Translations under genes and position numbers: made by a program
Assembly: GCA_010405405.1 (NCBI GenBank)
Contig: MU004241.1
Location: forward strand, 310,001 to 374,000
Length of the DNA stretch: 64,000 bases
Source of the DNA: Microthyrium microscopicum
Taxonomy: Eukaryota
Direction: 5' to 3'
Part shown: positions 4,421 to 62,018 of the stretch, piece by piece
Layout of the letters: each line of letters opens with the position of its first letter
Numbering within the stretch: position 1 is the first letter of the stretch
The notes under the pieces: generated by a model
What the model was told of the DNA's origin: nothing
Seen by the model: only the letters and a program-made list of their open reading frames with translations
The model's database searches: none

Positions 4421-4550
4421 CGAAGCTGGAGTGTCGGAAGCTGGAGTGTGATTGCGCTCGAAGCTGGAGTATTTGGAACTGAAGTGTTTGAAGCAGAAGT
4501 ACTTGAAGCTGGTGTGTTTGAAGCTGGGAAAAGACCTGCTGAAGTATCTG
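4421..4550. repeat. Degenerate ~15-bp tandem repeat (GAAGCTGGAGTRTTT-like)
   Basis: Recurring gaagctggag/gaagcagaag/gaagctggtg units upstream of the 4342 start codon. Confidence 0.65.
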
Positions 4551-4611
4551 TGTGGTGGGTTCTTGTAGTCCGCATGAGTGTAACCGTGGTTGCAAAAAGT
4601 ATCCAGCACTC

Positions 4612-5085
4612 CCTTAGCGGGCCTTGGCGGCCCAGGCAACAGTCAAGCGACGGTCGATCAACGGTTATTTAGCAATCAACGTTTATTTTTCTAAATGTGC
4701 AAAAGACTGTTAAATAATGCCTTAACAGTTAATTGCGTAAAACGTTAATTAACCTTATATTTATTAACTAATGGTTAGTATAATATTGCTAACTATTAGC
4801 TAACGTTTATTACTTATAATTAAAATCTAGGCTAACTACTAATTAATATTTAATAACTAAACTAACGCTTATTTAATAGTTATATAATATATTAACTATT
4901 ATTTAATAATTATACTTTATAAATATTAGCTAATTCTTTAACTATTAGCCTACGTTAAGGCTCTATTAATATATATTTACTCTAATAGTTAAACAACTAT
5001 TAAAATTTATTTAACTATAGTTAGATAATTAATTACTAACTAACCGTAGAATAATAGTTGCCCATGTCGCTAAGGCCCGCTAAGG
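4612..5085. mobile_element. MITE-like / non-autonomous DNA transposon relic with ~29-bp TIRs and a RIP-degraded AT-rich interior
   Basis: Left 4612-4640 reads CCTTAGCGGGCCTTGGCGGCCCAGGCAAC. The reverse complement of 5057-5085 reads CCTTAGCGGGCCTTAGCGACATGGGCAAC. The interior is extremely AT/TpA-rich with no ORF. No clear TSD. Confidence 0.75.
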
Positions 5086-5493
5086 TCCCTGTCAATCTTG
5101 GCGTTGCGTAGAAAATATAGAAAAGCCGCTATACCGGATCCGGAAGTTTTTTTTTTTGGCCGCACCCAACAGGAGGGAGAGCTAGCTCTTGATCTCCATT
5201 GCGTCTACGGAGGAGTACTCTGATTGAGATGTGCCGAGAGCAACTACTTCGATGTCGTAGTCCACATACGGGGTTAGGGGAGGTATATTAAATGCAGGCA
5301 TGGCTAGTAATAACACGAGGAGAACAGCGAGGAGATAGGTTGATGTGAATCTTGCATGGAAAATGCTTGGGATGATAATGGTTGTTGATCGCTTGGTATA
5401 GCGTAGAACCTAGCAGGTCTCATGTGAGAACTATGCTCAGAGATGGGCTCCGCGAAGAACTCCTCCGAGGAGAGATGAGCTCCCCGAAGAAAA

Positions 5494-24821: not shown

Positions 24822-25479
24822 TTTGTTGGATATGCGTTGATATACCGAGCAACCTACGCGAACCCTTACTCTTACTATTTAACCTACTGTACTGATTCCT
24901 GTGATATCCATTGCGTACATATTGAGGCGTTGGAGGAGAATGGTTCTTCAGATTGAGTAGTGAGCCTTGCATGGCCATACCCTTAGAGAATGAAGCATTG
25001 TAGTTTGTACTTGGTGTTGTATGAAATTATTTGGACCTTACTTGCTCTACGTGACCATATTCAAAGCAACCACACCTTGAGACGCTTGTTTCCCCCATCA
25101 ACGTACATAGCTCTCATTACCATTATGTCCCATTCAGAGCTAGCTTTCCGCAAAGGATGTCGACTCCTTGGTCATCCACTAAATGCAATGGGAAATAGAC
25201 CATCTTTTCAGATGCGTTGGTGGGAGCCATGGAATCTGATGGGACCATGTCGGTCAATTTGCCAGTCCGTTGACTTGATATATCTCGCCGTGATTTCCAC
25301 CGCACAACCGAGTGATACAATACTAGATGAGAGAATGACTTGCATGTTTAACATGGTCTTGTGCTTGACTGTTGTGCCTGCGTCAGGTCTAGAACATTTG
25401 CCGTATGCAGAATTATTTTCGGAGGCGCTTGGACTAGCGAATTCCTGCGTAGCACCCTTGAATTCGACTTTATTAAGAA

Positions 25480-25830
25480 GAGGGTAAAATAAATAAAAGT
25501 AGGCTTGTTAGAATCTACGTTTAGACACCTCTAGACGTATTTGCTATTTTCTTATTATCTACGTTAGTAAGGGTGTAGTTCTGGTTTAAAAGGAGCCAAA
25601 ATAGCAAAACTAAAGACTTGAAGATGTTGATTTTGATACCAAGACCTGCTAAGATATTGCTAAGACTTAACATTAAAACTTAAGTTTTTAGTACTTTTTG
25701 GCAAAAACTAAGATACCTCTCTTAACACAACGGATAATAAACTAAGCCTTAGATATACTTATAGCTAAGAGGATAAACTTAAAGGTTTAAAAGAGTATAC
25801 CTTAAACAAATAAGTAGTTATACCATAATT
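25480..25830. mobile_element. AT/TpA-rich RIP-degraded repeat relic
   Basis: Abrupt drop in GC, excess TA/TAA/TAG, scarce CA/TG and no ORF. The element family is not identifiable. Confidence 0.6.
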
Positions 25831-26115
25831 CTAATCCGCGTCCAAAAAACCACAAAATCTACGAGGGAGCTGCGCGAGAATTCGGGTCCAAGCGCCCTCC
25901 GAAAATGATTTTGCATACGGCAAATTGAGCGTCGAAAGGCGACATGCGAGCCCTGCAACTTCATCTCTTGCATCATTCTCCTGCAGACCACGACTTTCAC
26001 TCACCCAGAACTACTCCTACCTTTCACATGCTTTCTTCATGAGCCTTGTAATATTTCATTTTCCATGTCTTACTTTCTCCGGTAGACTTGTGCGTCTTAT
26101 CGCTTCAAGGCCGCT

Positions 26116-33531: not shown

Positions 33532-34464
33532 ATGGACGAAGACGCAGTCAAGGCCCCCATCGCCGCAGAACACTTCCTTCCAAGCTTTCAATACCTGACT
33601 GATCTGGCATTGACGCCGATTGATCGCGATCTCAACCGCGAGGTCGTGGCCCAGGCTCTTTTGCTATCACCTTTTGTTCCTGTCTCAGGAGCTCAGAACA
33701 CTCGAGATCTAGGCCTCTATCCACAGTCTGGAGTCAAAGCTGTTCTCATCTTCCGTTCCGGACCATTGCATACAGTTCCTGAAGCCAGTCGCGCTTCGCT
33801 CTCAACTCAGTTGGGTATAAAAGTGATTTTCGACCTTCGCCAAGAGCACGAGTTCGAAAAGAATTCATGCCCCGAAATACCTGGCATCAGGAATATTTGG
33901 GTTCCGCCTACAGACGAGAGAGTTCGAGTCACTCCGTCAGATTTTGCTGAGGACGAAGGCGTTGCGGGCTATATCAAGATGTATGACAACTCTCTTACTG
34001 TCTATGCCCAAAGCTTTGGCCGTATTCTACGATTTCTCAAAGATAATGAAGATGTTCCTATCATATTTCATTGCTCAGGTAGCCATTGTAGAATTCTCCA
34101 TGTTGTTTTCTCTTATTTCTAATTGTATCTAGGTGGAAACGATAGGACAGGTGTTCTCTCAGCTTTGATTATGAGTCTTGCTGGCTGTTCACCTGAAGTG
34201 ATTGCCCAAGATTATCTTCTCAGCAGGATCTCTTTAGAAACAACCAAGCATCTATTGTTTGATGATATGGAGCAGTAGCTTGGGAACGACTGGATAACTA
34301 TCCCAGGTGCGAAAGAGATGGTCGGCGTGAATGCATACATCATAGCTTCATTCTTGGGCTTTATGCAGAAAACGTATGGCGGTGTGTCAGAATATTGCAA
34401 GAACGTCCTTGGATTAAAAACAGAGGAAATTGCTGGGGTATGTAAGAGCTTGAAGGTAAGATGA
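33532..34464 (+). pseudogene. Tyrosine/serine protein phosphatase (Y_phosphatase3/IphP-like) with one in-frame TAG at 34276-34278
   Basis: NTRDLG, IFRSG, IFDLR and HCSG/GNDRTG (CX5R across intron 34079-34132). After EQ*L the frame continues to a typical YGGVSEYCKNVLGL end and TGA at 34462-34464. Pseudogene versus recoded gene is unresolved. Confidence 0.75.
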
Positions 34465-35036
34465 GTATGGACTTCAAGAATAAAATGCAACAATGAGAAT
34501 TATAGTGGCATCTGTTGATGTCTCCTTGAACTTCACGCGCATCGTTTGCTCTTTTACTTAACTTCAGAATACCTATATTTCATACTTTTCAAGGTCATTT
34601 GCTTTATTGAGAATTCCAGTATCAGAATCAATTGACTCTTCTGCAATGAAAAATCGTGCATTCCTCTCCTGATTTGTTATTCAACTGGGTGCTTAAATCT
34701 ATGATCCAGGAAAAATTATATCTTCCAAATGTCCAAGCCGCTCGGAAAATGAGGAAAACCAACCACATTATTTCCAATCAAGAATCTGCTTCGGGAAGGG
34801 ACCTGAGGTGCAGCTGCAATGGTCATTTTTCCCGTTTTCAACCCGCACCAGCTCTCTCCAAAATCTCATCTTCACCGTCTTTTGTTCAAAGTCTTCCACG
34901 TACTCTTTCAATCATCAGCCTCGTCAACGCTTGCTAATACACGGCCAAGTGGACCTTACGACCATTATCTTTCCACATTGAATTACAACTTGTCGAGGAT
35001 CTTATTAAAGCTTCACGTCGCGCTATTGCCTCATCA

Positions 35037-36887
35037 ATGAACAATCTCAGACAACGACAGCTTGCGATCACCCAAGCTGGTTGGTCGTTCATTGAAGATG
35101 ATCAGATCGATCCACAAAAGGCATTTATCTATCGATTGTCCAACGAATTGATTCACGAAATTTTCCAGTATGTCTTCTTGGAGCCAAGTGGAGTTCCACG
35201 GTGTGTGCGCGAGCAAAATTGTGTCTGCTCACTGCAATGGAACCAAGGATCTTATCCCGTGCTATACCTTTCTCATCGTCTTTACGACATTTGCTTGCCC
35301 TTTCTATACCAGAATATAGAATATAGAATTAGGGAGTATTGGTAATTGGACCAATCTGGGTGGCACATCGAACTTTGGAAAGATGACGGGCACCCGCCAC
35401 AGGAAATTGCAAATCCTGTATCAAAACCTGTGCGTTCATCCAAGATACCGATCTTGGTGCCGTAGGCTCAAGCTGGAGTCCTGCGTGAATTCAGAGACTG
35501 ACGAGCTTCGATATAACCCTGAAAGCATTTCCCTGGCCAGTAGCATTTTTGAATTTCTAAATGCCTTGAGGTGTATCGAGATTTCTTCCGCATGGTGCCG
35601 CGAAGAAGACAATCCATTCATGGATGATTTGAGCCACTCTTTAATGAAAAAAGAACATGTCAAACACTGTCATGTATATGAAGGTATGGGTAGATGTTCA
35701 CCCTTGCCATTACAAGAAGTTGTATTTGGGAGAGCTTTCGGTAACTTGACTATTCTCGAATTATCGATGATGTCTGAGGAAGAATGTGAGCAACTGAATA
35801 GCAAGGTAGAGAGTGCAATCATCGAGGCGAAGAAGATACTAACGCCATAACCAGGATATGATCAACACGGCATCTTTCACAACCCTTATTCTTTCAGGAT
35901 GGGGATGGCGACGATTCGGTGGACAACAAAGAATAGGGACGCAAGTTCAGCTAGCCCCCATTGCTGCTATCTTGAGATGGCCTCGAACTTTAGAGCACTT
36001 CTACTACTCGGACTCTTGTCCAGATCTAATGGATTTTGTGTTGTTGGACTTCCAGCATCTTCTCGCTCCTTGGAACCAGACATTGAGGTCCATCGAGATC
36101 CGGCACATATCGCAGTCCCAACATTCGGCTGTTACTATTGATCCTAGTCAATTGATGTTACTCGCACAACAGTCTATTTCTATGTCAACGCTTATTGAGA
36201 ACCACCAGTCGCAGTCCCCTCCAATTGATTTGCGAGGTTTTGTTAGCTTGGAGTCGTTTTCTGCCCCCCGAATCCATCAATACATGCCGCCTGCGATGGC
36301 TGCGAAATATCTGCTTGCACCAAACCTGAAGCGAATTGTCTGGAACTTGGAGAACGACTACCGCCAAGGTCCTCATCCTTATGAAACCTTCGGTCCCGAC
36401 TGGGACGCCTTTGAGCTGAACCAGGACTGGTTGCAAGACTTCATTATCAGAGTGGCTACAAGCCAGTGCTCTTCATTGGAAAATATTCATGTCGAGTTTT
36501 GTCCACGCCCTGATGCTGGTAAGCAAAAGTTTCCTATCGATGGCATCCTTGCTCTTTGGTAAACGTCTGCGTAATGCCGAACCTTGAATTTATCTCTATA
36601 GCCAAAGTTATCGTGTACTAACAAACCTAGTGGTTACATATATCGATCCTTTTATTGAGAAGGTTGTTCGATTCCGATATCCTTGGGACAAGATGGACAG
36701 AATTGATCGCAAAATCAGGAGACACGAGTTGTCTTTGAGTTATAGTCCACCACCACTTAGCCGAGAGCACTTCTACAAACAGCAGGAAGAACACCTTTCA
36801 ATGCTCAGAGTGGAGGAGATTCAGGCCAATGATGGAAATTGGTGGCAACAAAGTGACACCATAGCAGACTTTAGTAGAGAGGCATAA
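35037..36887 (+). pseudogene. F-box domain protein, frameshifted by a 7-bp tandem duplication
   Basis: F-box-like IYRLSNELIHEIFQYV. AGAATAT is duplicated at 35311-35324, giving an early TAA; removing one copy joins the 35037 and 35383 frames. Further exons lie at ~35854-36518 and ~36631-36887. Confidence 0.7.
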
Positions 36888-37250
36888 CGGTCATTTAGCA
36901 CCGCGGCATCAAGTAGTTGAGCAATTTAGTGTCCTTGTTGCCTGGTATTGGCAGGTACATGTATGGACCTGAGTACGCGAAAATAGACAAATTGAGCAAT
37001 GATAATGCCTCAATTCTGTGTGGCCAGGAACTGGCTTGAATTGGAGCTAACCGGTTGACGTCGCTACTACTGATGGAAATGATGAGTGGTGTGCCTCCAT
37101 CAACGACTTTGCCTCAATTTGCCACAATGTGTGAGTACCAACTACTTTATTCTCCATTGGCTTCCTAGCGGATGTTGAGGATCTTCGACTACTATGAGCT
37201 CTGGAGAGTATGAGCGTTGGAGAGTATGAGCTTCAGAGGGTGTGGTGGTA

Positions 37251-37345
37251 GCCACCGCACTCGATGGGAGCCACCGCACTCGATGGGAGCCACCGCACTC
37301 GATGGGAGCCACCGCACTCGATGGGAGCCACCGCACTCGATGGGA
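37251..37345. repeat. Perfect 19-bp tandem repeat x5 (GCCACCGCACTCGATGGGA)
   Basis: Five identical contiguous copies with no spacers. Confidence 0.97.
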
Positions 37346-37376
37346 GTCTGCCACTTATTTTGTCAACTCGTTGATA

Positions 37377-38414
37377 TCAGTGTTCCTCATAGGGAATTGC
37401 CAATGACCCAGCTGCATTCTGTAAGAATTCTAGCTTTTCCTGGCGAATGGCCATTTGTTCAGGAGTTGACACTTCACTTTGCACCACCCATTCAATCGCC
37501 GCTTGAGTTGTTCGTCTGAGGCGTCTGTCATACTCATGGACCTCTTTGCTGAGGTCGTCGAGTGCAGTCGACAATCCGATCTTGTCAAGCTGCTTAGGCC
37601 AGCCAAATTTATAGTACAGAGTTTTCAATGCGCGCCAGTAATTCAACTCGTTTCGATGCCAGTTCTGAAGAGCAGGAAACCCCTTTCGCCAGTCCTCAGG
37701 ATCTGCGTACGCAATCAAGGTAGCCTGAGAAAGTCCAGTGCGGTTTCCAGTTTTTTCATCAAACTCTCGCGGGAATTGTGCTTTGAGCTCGACGCCCCCG
37801 ACTGGTAGATAGATGAGATCATGAAGATTTTTGACCCAGTTGTCCAAGATGACCTTGGCAGGATAGGACTTGATGGTTTTGTACTCATCCCATGAGGTAT
37901 CGCCGCTATGCATGATTGTCATGGTCGCGTCCTCGCTTTTGTATAAATAGTAGAAATACCGCCGTCCAAACATGATTCGCCTATCGCCTGTGACAAAAAA
38001 GTCTTTCCCAGAGAGAAAATTAGGTATCTCATGCATCCCGCGATAATTCGGGCCCGCAACCAGATAGGATAGATTTGTAGCATCGTGAGCAATTTCAATA
38101 GGCTCGTGGTACTTCAAATCATCCTTGAGATATGGTAGTAACTCCAGAATATCGACGACTTCCGGAGCGAAGCCAATGCGTAGCCAATCCTGACGAGGAA
38201 AGTCGGTATGAGGTGGCCAAGAGATGTTGTCAGGATTAATATGGCCGAGGGATACTAGCAGCGTGTAGACCGCAAAGAGGCCGAGGAGCAAAGGGTGGTG
38301 TTGCTCGGGGATGGCATTGTCTTGTATGAGCGAGCACAATGATCTTCCATGTTCGTTATATTGTGAGACGTGCTCTAGGTCAATGTAAGGAGGGAGTAGA
38401 TGAGGAGAAATCAT
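37377..38414 (-). CDS. Hypothetical protein
   Basis: Intronless 345-codon ORF from ATG 38414 with globular-protein composition (YTLLVSLGHI..ISWPP, PEVVDILELLPYL, LYYKFGWP). Function not recognised. Confidence 0.7.
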   Translation of the reverse strand: MISPHLLPPYIDLEHVSQYNEHGRSLCSLIQDNAIPEQHHPLLLGLFAVYTLLVSLGHINPDNISWPPHTDFPRQDWLRIGFAPEVVDILELLPYLKDDLKYHEPIEIAHDATNLSYLVAGPNYRGMHEIPNFLSGKDFFVTGDRRIMFGRRYFYYLYKSEDATMTIMHSGDTSWDEYKTIKSYPAKVILDNWVKNLHDLIYLPVGGVELKAQFPREFDEKTGNRTGLSQATLIAYADPEDWRKGFPALQNWHRNELNYWRALKTLYYKFGWPKQLDKIGLSTALDDLSKEVHEYDRRLRRTTQAAIEWVVQSEVSTPEQMAIRQEKLEFLQNAAGSLAIPYEEH

Positions 38415-38695
38415 TTTCGCTTGGAGGATGTGATAGATAGTTTTCTGGGGATGACAGAATTGATATTGGAACGGAAGACGCAGGGTTGGAATCCTCAAAA
38501 AAAAGCAAAAAATCGCCGATCAATGCGGCTCAAAATGGTTCGCCGGGTTTCAAACGCCGGTAACTGTGCTGACTGATGCCGATAGCGAGTTCTTCATGTC
38601 CTGTACCACATTACACCCTTACGATTAACAAAGAATACCTGCCAGCTTCAAGATCTTTACTTGGTTGTCGGAGAGATCTCTGCAGACTGCGGATA

Positions 38696-39712
38696 ATGGA
38701 TCCATCAACTCCATCACAAATCAAGGCCGCTCCCGCACCCTGGAACATCAAAGCAGAAACTTACTAGTTTGTGCTAAAGCTGGCATCAGGCTCAGATAGC
38801 GACAAAGGAGTCTACGCGCCGCTAGAAGCTGCATCACCCGTTACTACTAATGCCGAACAAGTGGGAAAGCACTGTGGTGGTTTGGGGCTCATAATGATCG
38901 TCCGCTATGCCGACACACCATGCGGTTAGTCCCCGGATAGAACTGTCGCCAAAATCGTGATCAAAAAGTGTAAATATGCGGAGGACAATATTGACACGTA
39001 CAGGTCCATACGACGAGATGATGCTCATTCCAGGAGCGTTTGACGTCCCTAGCAAAAACAAGAAACGACTGCGCATTACACGAATCTATGTTAGCCAGAA
39101 AGACACCATGTATAATGGTATGCTTTCCCCAGCAAATGTTCTAGTGTTGAAAGCGAAAATATGATCCGAAAGCTGATCAACTGTATAGGTCGTGTGAATT
39201 GGAATATCCCCAAACATCTCGCACGCTTCACATTTTCATCACCACCAGTCTCTGCGTCAAATCCAACGCCCAAGCATCTGCAAATCTCCCTTTTCCCACC
39301 AAACCCAGCAGCCATCAATCCATTCTTCTCAGCAACAGTCCAGCCATTTACTTTTCCACCTGGTCTACCGCTCAACACCACATGGCTGCCCTCTTACTAC
39401 GGAACCACTACTTTACCGCCTCTACCATCTGCACTGTCAGCTCTAGATGGCGCTTGGTCGGCAGACGACGAGCAGATAGATGTCATGTATGCCCCAGGCA
39501 CAGATGAATGGTGTGAGTTTAGTGTTATCATGAAGTCGCGTAGGGCACGGTGTTGCTGGGTGAAGGTTGAGGGACCTGAAGCGGGCAGTGAAGAGGAGGC
39601 GGAGGCGCAGAGGTGGTGGCCGCAGGGGAAGAAGTGGAAGCCGTGGGCCGTTGGTCTTTGGATGGAGAATGCGGATTTGGAGATTACGGAGGGGATTAAA
39701 TGGAAGAGTTGA
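38696..39712 (+). pseudogene. Acetoacetate-decarboxylase-like fold protein with one in-frame TAG at 38765-38767
   Basis: APAPWNIKAETY*FVLKL...GGLGLIMIVRYADTPC/GPYDEMMLIPG...RITRIYVSQKDTMYN/GRVNWNIPKHLARF. There are two canonical introns and no other lesion is visible. Confidence 0.75.
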
Positions 39713-39787
39713 GAAGCAATTCCTAGTCTGGACGATAGCAGGAATGGCCTCCAGATCCGTAAGCATGATTATTAGATGGTGTCGGTA

Positions 39788-42331
39788 TTATGACATAGGT
39801 ATTTTGAAGGCTCGCTTCTTATTGCCACTGAGATCTGTGTGTATGTAGCTTTCAGCAAGCTTGTCGTTGTGAAAGACGTCTCTCTGGTCTCCTACTGGGA
39901 GTATGATGGCCAGTTCTGACCAGGCGGGTTTGAAGCCATTGGCTTTGATGTCTAGCTTGACTACCAAGTTATCCTGTTCAGCGACACCAGAGGGGCCGTA
40001 GGCCAATCTGAACTCTGCTATGTTTGGGTTTGCAGCCATACCATCATCTTCATACCATACATAGTCGGAAGGAGAAGCGTCCCAAGCCCACTGCTTCGGA
40101 GGAAAGATTTCGACGCCTCGGTAGTTATCAGGTGCTAGATGTCCCGGATTCGTCTTTTCTCCTGGCGATAATGTCTGATATGGTCTTCCAACAGGTATCG
40201 CTGACCCTATCCTCGCCAATATCGGGATAGAGTCCTTCCAGTCGCATTTGATTGTCACCCAATGGCCCTCCTGAAACTCTTGGAAGGGTGCGTTTAGGTT
40301 TATGTAGTCGCGAGCCTCTGACCCTGGGCGAGATTTCGGCAAGTAAACGTCAGAAATAGTCTGGCCTTCTTGGTATACGCCGCCTATCAGAAGTGCATCG
40401 CCAAACCAATACTGGTTATCCCCTTTCTTCAACTCTTCTGTCCACACTTCTGGATCATGTTCAAAGCCCCATCCGATCCATCGCTGTATCGGAGTCGCAA
40501 ACTGATGACTTTGAAGATGTAATGAATATGTGTATGGTATGAGCTCATATCTTCTCTTCATGGCTCGACGAACCAACGGTGTGATCCTCGGATACATCCA
40601 GGGCTCAATCACATCGCCCACGTTGTTGTCCTTCGGCGATGTTTTAAAGCAGTTGATGGCAAGTCTAGGCGAGTGGACGGCGTATTGTATCCAGCGAAGA
40701 AGAAGTTCTGGACTGGGCTGTGGACCCTCGAAGCCACCACAATCATGGCCGTAGCATTGCAATAGACAGAGACCAGCGTTGATGGTTATAGCATTCGCAC
40801 CTTGCATTGAACTCCAGCGGGTGTAGTTGTCACCGCTCCAGGAGCTTGCTGCGTATCTCATGGTGCCTGGAGTTGCCGATCTCGTAAGAACGAAGGGTCG
40901 AATGTTTGGGTCCATATCAACCAAGGCATCGTGCGACGCCTTTCCCATCAATTCAGTCTGAATTGCTCGACCCCAGAATCCGACATCCTTTCTCGTGCTC
41001 TCGTCTCCGTTAGCCTCAACAGCTGGATTATCCAATTTGCACTCCCAGCCATCATTCGGGATTGTATACTCATTATTATCGTTCCAAATCACTTCAATGC
41101 CCACCTCTCTCAACTTCTTAACGCCCTCATACCACCACTGAAAGCCCGCTTTCGACGTGAAATTAACATGACTCCCCTCACCACTCTCACCTCCACCAGC
41201 ACTCCACAGCCTCGCCACCGCCGTCTCCCTACCCATCTTGAACAATGCTCCCTCTCTCTCCAACCTCTCATACTCCGGATGATTCCTCAACACATAAGGC
41301 TTAACATTCGCAATGATTCTAACACCCGCCTCCCTCATCTCCCCCACAAAGCCCTTCGGATCCGGAAACCTCCGCCCATTCCAAGTAAACACATTCCTAG
41401 TTTTCGGCTCCGTCTCCGCAACCGTATACCCGGAACTCAACTGAAATCCCGAGCATGGAATATCATACTCGCTCAACAAATCCGCAAAATCCAACACCGC
41501 TTCGTGCGCCGGTGGATCATCCAGCATAGAATACTTCATACCGCCCGCAATATACCCAAATGCCCACCTAGGCACGAGTTTCGGATAACCCACGATCTCC
41601 GCGTAGCTAGTTACGACCTCAGAAAGCGTTTTGCCGATGATGATATATTCTTCTAGTCCACCATGTGCTTGGCGGTATACTTTATATCGTCCCCAGAGAC
41701 CGTCCATCTCTGAACCAATGGAGTAGAAGCCGCGCGCATGGCTGGTGGAGAAGAGGCCAACCACACCATCTGCTGAGGCGGTTAGGAGGAGGGGGATGTG
41801 TTTGTAGAGGGGATCAGTGCGGTAGGCGTCGTAGCCGAATGAATCTGTGGCGGAGAGGACGAAGGCGCGGTTGGAGAGATCGAGAGGTGCTGCCTTCTCG
41901 CCGAGACCTGCGTGGAGATCACCTAGACGGTAGGTGGTGTAGTGGGCGATGCCGGGACCGTCGAGGGCGTAGGAGCGGTGGGGGAGGTCGGCGTGGTAGA
42001 TGTGTTTGGTTTTGGTGTCTTGAATTGTGAGGATGGGGGTGTGGGTCCAGTCGAGGGAGGCTGTTGTGTTGGGGAGGGTGATGGTTGCTGAGGAGGAGGT
42101 TTGGGTGAGTCTGGGTTGTATATTGGCTAGATTGGTTGAGAGTGGTTTGGCACTGCGGTGAGGAGGAAGGGTGTGTTTGTTGGTTGTGAATGTTGTGCGG
42201 AAGATGGATGGGCGGACGGCTTCGAATGTGAATTTGATGGTGATACCCTCGCTCTTACTTTCTAGCTCTAACAAGCTTTCCGATGCTGATGTGAGTTCGT
42301 AGTCTTGTGGGACTACTTCGTATTGGGCCAT
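39788..42331 (-). CDS. Glycoside hydrolase family 31, intracellular (alpha-glucosidase/xylosidase-like, WNDNNE type)
   Basis: GLGEK, DPLYKHIP, RRFPDP, IWNDNNE (nucleophile), LTRSA, WSGDN (acid/base), GHDCGGF and ELLLRW. Intronless, no signal peptide. Confidence 0.93.
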   Translation of the reverse strand: MAQYEVVPQDYELTSASESLLELESKSEGITIKFTFEAVRPSIFRTTFTTNKHTLPPHRSAKPLSTNLANIQPRLTQTSSSATITLPNTTASLDWTHTPILTIQDTKTKHIYHADLPHRSYALDGPGIAHYTTYRLGDLHAGLGEKAAPLDLSNRAFVLSATDSFGYDAYRTDPLYKHIPLLLTASADGVVGLFSTSHARGFYSIGSEMDGLWGRYKVYRQAHGGLEEYIIIGKTLSEVVTSYAEIVGYPKLVPRWAFGYIAGGMKYSMLDDPPAHEAVLDFADLLSEYDIPCSGFQLSSGYTVAETEPKTRNVFTWNGRRFPDPKGFVGEMREAGVRIIANVKPYVLRNHPEYERLEREGALFKMGRETAVARLWSAGGGESGEGSHVNFTSKAGFQWWYEGVKKLREVGIEVIWNDNNEYTIPNDGWECKLDNPAVEANGDESTRKDVGFWGRAIQTELMGKASHDALVDMDPNIRPFVLTRSATPGTMRYAASSWSGDNYTRWSSMQGANAITINAGLCLLQCYGHDCGGFEGPQPSPELLLRWIQYAVHSPRLAINCFKTSPKDNNVGDVIEPWMYPRITPLVRRAMKRRYELIPYTYSLHLQSHQFATPIQRWIGWGFEHDPEVWTEELKKGDNQYWFGDALLIGGVYQEGQTISDVYLPKSRPGSEARDYINLNAPFQEFQEGHWVTIKCDWKDSIPILARIGSAIPVGRPYQTLSPGEKTNPGHLAPDNYRGVEIFPPKQWAWDASPSDYVWYEDDGMAANPNIAEFRLAYGPSGVAEQDNLVVKLDIKANGFKPAWSELAIILPVGDQRDVFHNDKLAESYIHTDLSGNKKRAFKIPMS

Positions 42332-42835
42332 GCTGCTGGTTCCAAGTTCGAATACACTCTGGAGGGCTGACAATGATGAAGGTTGCGAAGTACTGGCAAG
42401 TATCAATTGATGATCGTATTGAGCTTTCTCGAACCTTTGAAGCTTGATCCTAAGCTTGCAGTACGACCCCGCCAAGTATTTTCGGAAATCCCCAATCAGA
42501 GACAAATACATGAGCGTGCCATGATCTTAATGGGCTAATTGGTTAGTTGAATCACTGTTCCTGCAGTTAAGCTTGATACCTACTACTGTACGTAGCGGTT
42601 AGGAGGCACCCAGGGTTCCCGGCGGTATCGTTGGTAGAGAGTACTGTTTCAATCAATAAATTCGCTACCGAAGCTGTCCTTCGTTGTAGATATACAATAA
42701 CGCTGACCTTTGGGGTATTACCAATACTTTTGTAGTTCATATCTTCGTTTATTCCTGCCATCGAGTGGAATATTGCATACTAGGGCTCATCGCATCCCGG
42801 AACCATGGGCTGGCTTCAGAATTGTGTAGCAGGCT

Positions 42836-45305
42836 CTATCTGCTTACCACAGCCATCAGCGATTCCTTAGTTATGACGCCCCTGGCATATTTCAACTCAT
42901 CCGAATCCGCATAGAATTGTGCAATCGTCATGGGCTCTTCCATGTTGTCTGTGCATTCGGCAGCGTAAGGGCGATACTCGGTGAAAGATCGAACAATGAA
43001 ATCGTCCCACGCATACTTCGCCACTTTAGCTTTCTGCATTTGAACGCAAGTGTTGGTGAATTGAGTCAAGTTCCCGGTATATTCCGGGTAAGTTGTTCGA
43101 AATTCTCTCAGGACTTCGCTAGGACTCAAAGCTTGAGTAGGGCTGGGCCCATTATCTGGCCTATACTCAGAGATGCGTCGTGGTGGAGCCGTAGCCTTGG
43201 GCTTCATCTGCTCCCGCTCCGCACGCGGAGTGCTCCAAAAGGTCGCGGCACTCATAGGGCCTTGAGGCGTGCTGGCTACTGATGCTTGAGTAGCAAGGAT
43301 TCTGCTTGATGGTGGTTCTGAAGCACGTCGAGATTTGACCTGCTCTTTGAGATGATTCAGCGTCCGATTGTCCGTCTCTTGCATGGGCTGCCTACGTGTT
43401 GGACGCTCTTGAGTGGAGTCGAATTTGGGAGGAGCTTTGAGCACAGATGTAATTTTTGATCTTTTCGGTGGGCCATCAACTTGTTCTTCATTTGGACGCT
43501 TGAGATGTCTACTTTGAACTTCGTTATTTCTGCCACGGACTGAGGGCTCAATCGTGCTCGGTATCACAGTGTTTCTAGCAGAGGTGTTTGACTCGTCGCT
43601 AAGAGTCTGGGTGATACTCTGTGGTGACGCAAATTCGCGACGGCTAGCAGATGGTGTGCTTGGAATAGGACTTGGTCGCTTCTTCATCGAAAATCCGACA
43701 AAATCTGTATTTTTGGAGGTGGTGTTGAGCGATTTTGGACGCGAAGCTAGGTTATTTGCCGATTTGTTAGTCCTGTTTGTCGGTTGCCCACCCGCCGTGG
43801 AATCTGGAGAAACCTGTACGGGACTTGGGACTTGAGAGTAGCCATCGTCCGTATCCGAAGGCAGTTTCATTTCTGGATGTTGATGAAGAGGCCGTGGTTT
43901 GACTGGAGTAGGCGAAGGCGTCCACTGGGTGAGCACCTCGTCGTCTTCGTCTTCGTCGTCGTCTTGGTCTTTGACAGCATCCACTTTTGAGTTGCGGGTA
44001 TTACTGGATTCAGGGAGACCGTCGTCAGAATCTGAATGGCCGCTCTCTTGGGTTGAGTCACCGTCGGAATCTGTATCGGTATGAGATTTTGAGGAGTGCT
44101 TTGAGATTCTTGCAGCTTCCAGTTGCATAGTCTCCTGGTCTTGATACAGCTGTTCACGTATTGCACCCGGTAAGAAGACGTCACGCAAACCGTGAGGTGG
44201 CTTCTTCCAGCCTGATAAGTCAGTATTGAAACACACACGCGGCGAAGAACCTACTAGTGAGGCTTTCCAGAATTTGTTCCTGGTCCGGGGATGTTTGAGC
44301 AGTGTGACAGCTCGGTTTAGTGATGTGCTAAGTGAAGTTTTAGTACTGACATGACATGACAGGCACCAAATAGAAAACTCACTGCCCAATTATCTAATGC
44401 ATTTGAGCTGAGTTTTGGCGGGTATGCCATGGCCTGTTCAGGTAAGCCTTGACGGGCTTGAAAAGCGGCTAAGGCGGAATGAGCGGCAAACGCGAGTTCC
44501 TTGTGTGGATTGTCGGGCTCCCCGGCTGTGTCTGAAGCAATAGTCTCGAGTAGTTCTACTTGTAAGGGTGACGATGGTCGAGGCGTCAATGGCAAGATGG
44601 CACGCGGCCTGGGAATAGGATTGAGGTGTTCAAACTGAGCCCAGCGTTCAGATAGCTCCTGAATGGCAGACACCAGGCCGATTGGCTTAGGATTGCCGAC
44701 GTGAGGCTGTTGATCCACAACAGAATCAAAGTCTTGCAAAATGAAGAGAGGGTCTATATGGCTGGGTTCAGAAGGATTTTGCTTCAAGCTGAACTGTACG
44801 GTTATGACCTTGAGGCGGATGATGTTGCCAATGTGGAGGTTCTTCACTTTGTAGTGTTTGGTTTTAAGATCTTCTTGGCCTGATTTGGAAACATATGCCT
44901 GCACATGAGTGGTGCCATCAGAAACAGAAAAATAGTTCCTGTGCTTGGTGTGATGAAATGAGTAGATCTAAGATTCAACGGTGAGATTAGTAAAATGAAA
45001 CCGGTGGTACGATTTGGTTGAGGAGAGGGAAGATTAAGAAATGGAAAGGATACCTCACGAACCTGAAGTGATTCTGGTTCTGAACCAAAACGGATGATCA
45101 AGGTTAGTGTTTTGCGATGTCTATCAAGTCTCGGTTGGACCTGATATATGGGAGAACTGGAAGAATCCAATTCAGTAGGCAGCCACGAAGTAAATGACAC
45201 TTCAGTCGCGGCGGACTCAGTAGCCTTTGTGGAGAGTTTTTGCCAGGTCTTTAGTAATTCGCGTTGGATAAGAGGACCAATCCAGTCTGTCAAAAGGGTA
45301 GCCAT
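42836..45305 (-). CDS. TPP1/Est3/Tpz1-like telomere protein (N-terminal OB-fold, disordered linker, conserved-looking C-terminal domain)
   Basis: LTDWIGPLI...LQVRE/IYSF...FSVSDGTTHVQA...GNIIRL...GNPKPI matches the TPP1/Est3 OB pattern. Spliced DQEQILESLTSW motif. C-terminal FRTTYPEYTG..F...C...WDDFIVR. Introns at 44968-45053 and two near 44216-44381. Confidence 0.7.
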
Positions 45306-59533: not shown

Positions 59534-60399
59534 TTCGCGTTATATTGAACGATCGAGAGTTATGTTTCATTTGAGAAGCAAATTTCAATGAACTTCAACG
59601 CCGGGGGTCAGCAGCTGTAAAAGGAGATGATGCCGTATTCGTCGTTCGGGAAGGCGTGGATTGTGCTGACAAGGTCGAAAGCAGTACTCCGTACTACCAC
59701 ATACAAGCACTATGCGGTATCATCATCGATTGCCACGACTGGGAGAGAGTGCGTTACTGGTCGTTGAGGTTGATGGTCATATTGAATGCATCGGGGAGAT
59801 TGTGAACCGCTTATACAAAAATATAATGCAGCAGATCTACAAGCAAACCTCTTCAACAAATTCTCGCGAGTCGCGAGTCGTGACGCCACAGACGCGACAG
59901 AAACCGTCGGCAACTTCCATGTTCTCTGACCGTGTCGTGAGCCGTGCAGGAATCTGTGCACCAGATCGCTGGGAAGATAATGATTTACCCATGACTTCAA
60001 CACGAAAGTGTGCAACGCGTTCCTGAAAACCGTCACAACCCCCGGCTTCATGATGATGGAAGTGTTTTCAATCTTCATTCAGCATGATTCTTTTGTTTTG
60101 AATGGTCCAGGCTCCATGACAACCATCAAGCCTCCGAAGGGACATATCGGCTATGGGATTGGTACCGGAACAAAGACTACTCGGTACCAGCAATGTACTT
60201 GTGGAAAGAAATAGACAAGTTATTTTATTTCAGCTTCGTATTCATCACTTTCGCATAGTACACCAATGCGTGTTCAAGGCCGATCACTTCGTACTCGCAA
60301 GATTGTTTAGAGGCTCATTTACAATGCTTATCTCTAACCCGCAATTTGGTTATCTCAGAAGCTTAGCCCCTAAAACTCCTAAAGCCAGATCCTGTCTTA

Positions 60400-61020
60400 T
60401 CACGGCACGTAATGAGGTAGATCTAAGTTTTAGGGTCTAAGACTATATCGCGCCTTTTATTAGTAGAAACGCTTTAAAATATAACAACTTCAACTTATTA
60501 ATACTTTATTAATAATAACTCGTTATTCTCTAAAATTAAGATATACTTAAAGCTCTTAAACTTAGCTTCTTAACACTATTTATGGCTTCTTTATTAGCCC
60601 ATTATTAAGCTTAGAATCCTCCTTTAGAATCTATGTTTTAATTCTAGGTTACTTAGAATTAGAAAATTAACAATTCTTTAAACTAATATAACTCCACTAC
60701 CTTTCCAAATTTAAGTTTTTAGATATTTGTTTTAGATTTTTTAGGATAAGGTAAATAACTATAAGCGCGGAAAAAATATCAAAATTTTGGTCGTTATAGA
60801 GCTTTAGGAGGTTAGTAAATTATATAATTGTAAGCATTTAGGGTATTTTTTAGCCTTATCTTTAGCGACCTATATAGCTATATAGAGTTAAGTAATAAAA
60901 ACGAAATTATAATAGTTATAAAGCGACGTTATTAAAGTATTTTTAGTAAAGCTTAGCTTTTTGAAATAAAGCTTTGTTGTCGAGATAAACCTAAATAAAG
61001 CCAAACTAAAGAACCCTTCT
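60400..61020. mobile_element. AT/TpA-rich RIP-degraded repeat relic
   Basis: Sharp AT-rich block with TA excess and retained CG dinucleotides, and no ORF. Confidence 0.65.
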
Positions 61021-62018
61021 AAGCGTTTGCTCATACAAATTCCGCGATCTAATCCCAGACTGTTGGATCGCGGATTAGGAGGTTAATGTTAGTCCTAAAA
61101 GGGAAGAAGCTAATCTAAATTAGGATACTATAAGCGATCACAACAGTCTGGGTTTCTGAGATAACAATTTGGAGTCTTGGTCTTGGACCCTTTTGATCAA
61201 ATCTTACGGCGTCAAGCCGAGAGCACTACCACTCGCGCTTCAAGGAATACCATCTTAACATTGTATCCCCGCAAGACCCTGCGGTCCGGGCCGCAGGGTT
61301 GGCTTTGTCTTCTATCAAAATGACCCACTACAGGGACTCCTAGTCGTTAAGACTTTGTGCTATGTGGCAGGCCCTACAGGAAACATGCAGTGTATCGTTG
61401 CAATTTAGAGAAGGGACAGCTGGTTGAACTTGAGGTGCATATTTCGAAAAGTATAGCTTCCGGTCACAAATTCATGTACCTTTCCTGAGTACCCTTGAAG
61501 GCAATCTGACTCAAGACCTCCAGATATTTCCTAGCGCTTATGTTGCTTAGAAGTTAGAACCTAAAGGTCAAATCCGAATCAGGCTATGTTCTGAGCTTCA
61601 GGTTCTGATTTAAGCCCCCAAGATGTGTGGTGTACTGCGGGTACGGTAAATCTACATTGTACTTTTCTTCGTGTCACAATAAGGCTGGGGTGGCTTTATA
61701 CTTACCTCTTAGGCTAGCTAAGCATTCATTTCGCTTCCTCACGATCATATGTACTGCTAATAATAGATGAAGCAATTGGTATATAGATTACTCTCGCAGC
61801 TCTGGTCAACAACGACGCACTTCTCATTCCAAGGCTCGTGTTTTGCTCTATAATATTGCTCACGTTATAACTGATCGATTTGTCACTTTAGGAACGAGTG
61901 ATTACTTTGGGCATTTTGACAGATCCACATCTCGTTGTCAGCTTTCCAAAGGTCTCTTCAGTTTTAGAAAACTGAATGTCGATCACATGAAAAGCTGTGC
62001 ATCACACTATCACCTCTC

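Follow-up and report, generated by a model that had tools for sequence, protein, structure and literature searches.

Our analysis revealed a single in-frame TAG at codon 24 of an acetoacetate-decarboxylase-like (ADC-like) gene of Microthyrium microscopicum, and we consider a recent TGG>TAG nonsense mutation the best reading of it, with a somewhat better than even chance of being correct. The nonsense reading is favoured because the DNA carries the TAG and a spliced RNA contig retains it unedited, because it occurs at none of the 28 related loci that cover the codon, with TGG at all five of the closest, and because its adenine (A38766) is predicted to be paired, has depleted U at positions +3 and +4, and lies in a host class without reported editing. 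The gene has the following parts in the window, by which we mean the whole stretch of 64,000 nt that was analysed.

38696..38924, + strand: exon 1 of the ADC-like gene, its ATG at 38696 with A at -3 and G at +4; aligned to the N-termini of relatives
38765..38767, + strand: in-frame TAG, codon 24, with the target A at 38766; present in DNA and spliced RNA contigs
38894..38896, + strand: first in-frame ATG 3' of the TAG, at which the public annotation begins its 222-aa product
38925..39003, + strand: intron 1, 79 nt, GT..AG; skipped exactly in the RNA contig, position common to five relatives
39004..39117, + strand: exon 2 with the conserved GPYDE motif (family alignment, RNA contig)
39118..39188, + strand: intron 2, 71 nt, GT..AG; skipped exactly in the RNA contig, position common to five relatives
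39189..39712, + strand: exon 3 with the NWNIPKHLARF motif and the final TGA (family alignment, RNA contig)

Joining the three exons gives 867 nt, that is, 288 codons and the final stop, in which codon 24 is the sole internal stop. This confirms the initial annotation in two of its claims, a single UAG in an otherwise intact ADC-like gene and a frame and two introns that stay intact past it, both introns being spliced exactly in the RNA contig. Positions 38696-38800 read MDPSTPSQIKAAPAPWNIKAETY*FVLKLASGSDS in translation. The public model begins the protein 66 codons late, at ATG 38894, which has A at -3, lies 127 nt 3' of the TAG and is preceded by an out-of-frame ATG at 38850; such a start at the next ATG resembles an error type of CHE1 homologues described in the available part of PMC11169179. 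Downstream, a GH31 glycosidase gene on the minus strand (39788-42526) converges on the ADC-like gene with 75 nt between the stops, and one 7537-letter RNA contig covers the ADC-like/GH31 region. Upstream, short arrays of 2.5 copies of a 16-nt and 5.3 copies of a 19-nt tandem repeat occupy 37193-37346, just behind a divergent neighbour gene at 37377-38519.

The modelled structure of a close relative places this fungal gene, which is present once in the genome, within the acetoacetate-decarboxylase-like fold. The protein search gave 17 matches among 4295 candidates, the named neighbours being Dothideomycetes and other Pezizomycotina, and its top match was the 222-aa M. microscopicum protein that starts at ATG 38894 and is 100% identical to the part 3' of the TAG. 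The relative P0021 (281 aa, 64% identity, structure model pLDDT 91.6) matched the solved structures of acetoacetate decarboxylase, MppR and others (PDB 3bgt, 3c8w, 4jmd MppR, 6eej Sbi aldolase-dehydratase, 5upb Swit_4259) with a Foldseek E of 3e-9, a probability of 1.00 and a TM of up to 0.60, which supports the ADC-like assignment that had been made from the sequence. The likeness to this superfamily lies in the beta-barrel fold of P0021 and an invariant PK motif, whereas identity to its structures is only 9-15%, and a PDB sequence search gave no match for the protein. Pfam PF06314 was matched in 7/7 scanned proteins at 15.2-24.1 bits, under the curated cut-off of 29.8. The lysine of PK (codon 39212-39214, exon 3) is invariant in 51/51 family rows and presumably serves as the Schiff-base lysine, and the Trp24 column falls in the long first strand (E14-27) of the P0021 model. 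Protein and DNA searches of the genome returned one match and no second copy. The family search of the genome scored, as its sole PF06314 match, a second, unrelated ADC-like frame (L141, G000:C2:4022662-4025931) that is open for 489 codons and has a proline-rich insert.

Four of the six listed runs were compared over 38500-39850, as contigs only, so that rare variants are dropped; none of the runs listed was from fruiting bodies. Two DNA runs from one sample, which is possibly the source of the assembly itself, had depths of ~1026 and ~104 at the site and no letter other than TAG. Run X5, from a second sample of another study and year that may be the same strain, gave one contig in which both introns are skipped exactly and the UAG is retained, with no other letter; it was judged to be RNA from the two exact splice joints, no run being on record as RNA. 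Thus, no A>G at 38766 was seen in this single spliced RNA contig, which speaks at contig level and has no stage on record. Run X6 did not cover the TAG site. DNA run X4 had a minor contig at 39242-39406 of the window (depth 16.8 vs ~930) with 9 differences in 165 letters, which may stem from a related contaminant or from a copy left out of the assembly; it ends short of the TAG.

The Trp under the TAG, which the initial annotation had taken to be probably conserved, proved ancestral but not invariant. Among 32 related metagenome loci, 28 cover the column, with TGG in 13, ATG, ACG, ACA, CTC or TTG in 15 and TAG in none, and the five closest loci all have TGG and carry both introns at the same positions. 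Trp is just the commonest residue in the family alignment of 51 rows (16/37 once the 14 gapped rows are set aside), stands in 6/12 full-length matches of the first protein search, and is replaced in the wider family by T, S, M, L, V or I. Judging from these codons, the TAG is derived from a TGG that was ancestral for the clade. Conservation of the TAG in relatives, suggested as a check at the outset, was not seen at the 28 loci, the nearest of which are already at saturated dS; the searches turned up no sequence from the same genus.

Of the 55 columns on which 80% or more of 38 full-length homologues agree, the protein encoded here retains 54. Its dN to the relatives (0.21-0.30) is no higher than that among the relatives and matches the value for L003, the other long branch. 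Branch omega is not estimable because synonymous sites are saturated in all five comparisons (pS 0.74-0.87). The ADC-like gene thus appears either to have been under purifying selection until very recently or to be so still.

RIP was rejected as the cause of the TAG, since there is no duplicate, the indices are normal and only the short tandem arrays at 37193-37346 lie nearby. The gene has a TpA/ApT of 0.65 and a (CpA+TpG)/(ApC+GpT) of 1.36, and the indices are normal over 34,001-44,000. RIP-like AT-rich patches in 500-nt windows were found at 4501-5250, 25,250-26,000 and 60,250-61,250; the nearest are ~13 and ~21 kb from the gene, in agreement with the earlier statement that the gene has no RIP damage and that the nearest relic is >12 kb away. 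The CpA context on the opposite strand at the TAG fits RIP but is not specific, and none of the six RID/DNA-methylase matches had internal stops. The TAG needs no special cause because, by computation, 10-22% of the single-base nonsense changes that this CDS could undergo are TGG>TAG.

We propose that a single G-to-A transition changed the ancestral TGG (Trp24) to TAG very recently, in the lineage or the strain. The gene would still be transcribed and spliced, and ribosomes starting at 38696 would halt after 23 codons, which would leave a null or near-null allele with at most a little N-terminally cut protein made by re-initiation at 38894. The recency of the change, the loss of the protein and the dispensability of the ADC-like gene are what we infer from this reading. 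Like a young unitary pseudogene, the locus has one stop, no frameshift and no duplicate and is transcribed and spliced; in the tests made, it is set apart solely by its hairpin position and by genome-level hints. Against the nonsense reading, the lack of any decay is compatible with a loss only if that loss was very recent, and is just as compatible with continued function. In addition, the predicted place of the UAG, a single base away from the apex loop in a long, imperfect hairpin, weighs weakly, other genomic TAGs with a coding-like frame behind them, some in hairpin loops, provide hints, and the TAG in the second sample, possibly of the same strain, may count as well.

The hairpin and the bases around the site bear on A-to-I editing. 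Editing in Fusarium graminearum prefers C or U at -2, U at -1, A or G at +1, +3 and +4, and G at +2, and hairpin loops are favoured (available part of PMC9600606). The site reads C-U-[A]-G-U-U-U: C at -2, U at -1 and G at +1 are preferred, the -1 U and +1 G being forced by any UAG, the +2 U is neutral, and the U at +3 and +4 is the depleted base, so that the site departs from the preferences of premature-stop-correction (PSC) editing at these two positions. The hairpin is as follows.

38752..38775, + strand: predicted RNA hairpin of 9 pairs, in which A38766 pairs with U to close a 4-nt loop

This prediction extends to 16 nested pairs over 38739-38790, with energies of -10.2 kcal/mol in 41 nt (z -1.84) and -15.0 kcal/mol in 61 nt (z -1.03) and z-scores from -1.8 to +0.3 across windows. 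A38766, one base from the loop, is paired in every folding window tried (P unpaired 0.05). When 351 control Trp codons were mutated to TAG in silico, 30-44% were in a loop, 89-94% were more exposed than the site, and ~6% had as good a hairpin position of the site's kind. A position within one base of the loop of a hairpin with at least 12 pairs and at most -15 kcal/mol was found for 14/500 random control Trp codons and 3/44 ordinary terminal TAGs; this criterion was set after the site had been seen, and the support from it is weak. Taken together, the predicted sequence and structure context for editing at the site is middling.

Comparison with the known correction systems gives a mixed picture. 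According to the available part of PMC11156358 (the PMC sources below are likewise cited from their available parts), mRNA editing has been reported in Sordariomycetes and Pyronema and was not found in Aspergillus nidulans or Botrytis. M. microscopicum, a Dothideomycete, therefore stands outside the classes with reported genome-wide editing, as the initial annotation had envisaged. Editing in Dothideomycetes is left open by reviews (PMC11156358; for pseudothecia, PMC7306014), and no report of it was found in the open literature searched. Like the F. graminearum PSC pseudogenes, which are served by Tad2-Tad3-Ame1 (PMC10776026, PMC11087585), the ADC-like gene is intact but for one UAG, which arose from TGG through a G-to-A change. 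Unlike them, it has an unedited RNA contig, a TAG present in 0/28 relatives, an A predicted to be paired and a Dothideomycete host. The known corrected-stop genes are mostly induced in fruiting bodies (55/71) and rich in disorder (50/71; PMC10776026), whereas the ADC-like gene encodes a compact enzyme fold and was seen in RNA without a stage record. The same source describes TAGs at such sites also in single species of other classes, where it leaves editing undetermined. A word search of one supplementary file did not find the ADC-like gene among the F. graminearum PSC genes, table S1 possibly being elsewhere.

OLD-ZAO editing is known from Eurotiomycetes, Sordariomycetes and one basidiomycete (review PMC12754623). 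With the antiviral OLD-ZAO editing of Neurospora crassa and with CHE1 of F. graminearum, our case shares a UAG in a hairpin context, here a predicted one, and OTT_1508 genes in the genome. In those systems (PMC12754623) the hairpin UAG is corrected outside the sexual stage, with OLD-1 hitting further sites too, and the targets are zinc-finger transcription factors beside the deaminase, whereas the ADC-like gene has an enzyme fold. No OLD-like gene was seen beside the ADC-like gene in the window; the five OTT_1508-like deaminase loci above the cut-off (L039-L043) lie on other contigs, carry the HxE..CxxC motif in 4/5 cases and have a putative mRNA-editing activity. Neither within 10 kb of these loci nor among the C2H2 matches was a zinc-finger gene with an internal TAG seen. 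The ADC-like TAG behaves like a young nonsense allele and does not clearly show most of the features that define the known correction systems, so it is not classed with them.

As to the candidate cofactor, Ame1-Tad3 binding arose in Sordariomycetes via the change KN -> MV, and the Ame1 paper flags lineages with a duplicated Ame1 as a question (PMC11087585). The genome has three DUF726 genes, and the Ame1 supplement lists two Microthyrium Ame1 orthologues, a number that many Dothideomycetes share. Two of the DUF726 genes (L036, L037), which differ in subtype, lie in tandem on the minus strand at G000:C1:947325-952798. The Ame1-like gene is the following.

G000:C7:56177-57214 (L035), - strand: Ame1-like DUF726 gene with LV before a conserved Arg at the probable KN/MV place

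Our tentative equation of this LV with Fusarium MV500-501 is drawn from the description of KN, and the distance to the catalytic Ser differs by one residue. Among the matches listed, the first position of the place is K in 80/119 homologues and L or M in 19/119; the closest homologues of the C7 gene, one of them named Verruconis, have MA, LA, MS or LS, and most others K-x. The best 120 of 2692 matches in the Ame1-like homologue search included no named Sordariomycete, and no Ame1 structure was found in the PDB. The host of PSC editing is a Sordariomycete or Pezizomycete with a competent Ame1; here it is a Dothideomycete, and from its sequence the LV copy is a putative equivalent.

Other TAG stops of the genome were surveyed with a blind dicodon-model screen for coding-like continuation over 0.96 Mb (2.6% of the genome). 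A coding-like frame followed strong-frame stops in 3/47 cases for TAG, 2/55 for TAA (both introns by inspection) and 1/68 for TGA (marginal); TAG 3/47 against TAA/TGA 1/121 gives a Fisher p of 0.067, or 0.021 without the marginal TGA case. The screen misses the ADC-like site (score ~0), so the counts are lower bounds. A looser screen with 24 candidates in 4770 pairs gave no clear excess (non-intron TAG 5, TAA 5, TGA 3). Reassignment of TAG as a sense codon was rejected, since TAG terminates 47/170 strong and 22/102 long frames. Three sites were located in detail.

G000:C1:1642329 (L068:2327-2329), - strand: in-frame TAG in an 857-codon disordered, Trp-motif-rich frame, from the dicodon screen
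G000:C4:1000041 (L050:1642-1644), + strand: terminal TAG of ADA1/HFI1 (PF12767), with a 198-codon coding-like tail
G000:C2:1097854 (L083:7852-7854), - strand: TAG CAA CCG closing a 267-codon frame, with a 203-codon coding-like tail

The TAG in the 857-codon frame has 572 codons before and 284 after it, no intron signal, a DDWA* that parallels an upstream DWAW, and all six Fusarium-preferred bases; of the folds made, only that of 41 nt puts its A into a hairpin loop. From its sequence, it would be a stronger candidate for premature-stop correction than the ADC-like site. The ADA1 TAG lies in the 8-nt loop of a predicted 18-pair hairpin, with an OTT_1508 deaminase gene 8 kb away, and at C2:1097854 the A of the TAG is in a predicted 5-nt loop. 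Coding-like tails also follow the TAGs of RPC5 (202 codons), CWC21 (65), HIR1 (141) and RSC7 (101). The A falls in a predicted hairpin loop in RPC5, CWC21, ADA1 and C2:1097854 and outside one in HIR1 and RSC7; among ordinary terminal TAGs it does so in 16/44. A CAR 3' context follows the TAG in RPC5, HIR1 and C2:1097854, which suggests ribosomal readthrough as much as editing. These other sites are stronger editing candidates than the ADC-like site, and together the genome-level signs hint at UAG recoding in Microthyrium but do not prove it.

The chief rival of the nonsense reading is conditional A-to-I editing of A38766, in fruiting bodies or under virus or stress, which at every step we infer would turn UAG into UGG and yield the full 288-aa enzyme only then, by Tad2-Tad3 with an Ame1-like cofactor or by an OTT_1508/OLD-type deaminase. 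We hold this to be possible but rather doubtful. An ancestral TGG is the usual origin of corrected stops, the gene shows no decay behind the stop, and the UAG sits at the edge of a predicted hairpin apex. The genome adds a possible excess of coding-like continuation behind TAG, the 857-codon frame with its preferred bases, the TAGs with A in predicted loops, five OTT_1508 loci and an Ame1-like gene with LV where most homologues have K. Moreover, an edited site would look just like this in vegetative RNA, so that the unedited contig is no refutation. Against editing stand that single contig without G, the absence of the TAG from the related loci, the paired A with its depleted +3 and +4 bases, and a host that is neither Sordariomycete nor Pezizomycete. 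As for the machinery and the other TAGs, two Ame1 orthologues are common in Dothideomycetes, L or M recurs among the homologues and the MV alignment is indirect; the CAR contexts of RPC5, HIR1 and C2:1097854 suggest readthrough instead, 16/44 ordinary TAGs have A in a loop, HIR1 and RSC7 lie outside one, the C1 site is in one only in the 41-nt fold, and no OLD-like gene was seen beside the ADC-like gene. The UAG recoding suggested in the initial annotation thus keeps its premises, namely the fold, the TGG origin, the absence of RIP, a real TAG and the host class, and loses ground to the UAG of the RNA contig, the 0/28 loci and the middling context.

The remaining explanations carry far less weight. 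Re-initiation at ATG 38894 after the 23-codon frame, giving a functional 222-aa product in which the YDE and PK motifs are retained, is improbable. The ATG is in frame, has A at -3, lies 127 nt 3' of the stop and opens the public model, the mRNA was stable enough to be assembled, and AlphaFold gives the 222-aa protein a pLDDT of 89.6 and a pTM of 0.84. However, full-length homologues informed that prediction, which tells little about stability, the out-of-frame ATG at 38850 comes before, and the product would lose the long first strand (E14-27 in the model of the relative) and half of the second, both of which full-length relatives keep. Readthrough of the UAG by a near-cognate tRNA, yielding enough full-length protein, is more improbable again: the variable column would tolerate T, S, M, L, V or I, and CAR contexts occur at other genomic TAGs, but TAG is an ordinary stop in this genome, and the 3' context here is UUU GUG, unlike CARYYA or CUA, the leaky stop contexts. 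An assembly error, which the initial annotation had considered, or an intron that removes the TAG has hardly any probability left. A C precedes the TAG, so an acceptor is possible in principle, but the conserved APAPW motif upstream would be lost. Both were rejected: the two DNA runs (depth ~1026 and ~104) and the RNA contig all have TAG, and the RNA contig is continuous over 38500-38923 with no joint.

If the nonsense reading is true, the ADC-like gene carries an ordinary young null allele, and the main use of our study is the correction of the annotation, which begins the protein late. Our results also lead us to consider, tentatively, that Microthyrium may have evolved its own UAG-directed A-to-I editing, with the ADC-like gene as one corrected stop beside RPC5, CWC21, ADA1 and others, possibly by means of an OLD-type deaminase or of an Ame1 copy that converged on a hydrophobic pair at the Tad3 contact. 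Editing of this UAG would extend fungal A-to-I recoding to the Dothideomycetes. Recoding editing would then have arisen a third time in ascomycetes and, as far as the literature searched goes, for the first time in the Dothideomycetes.
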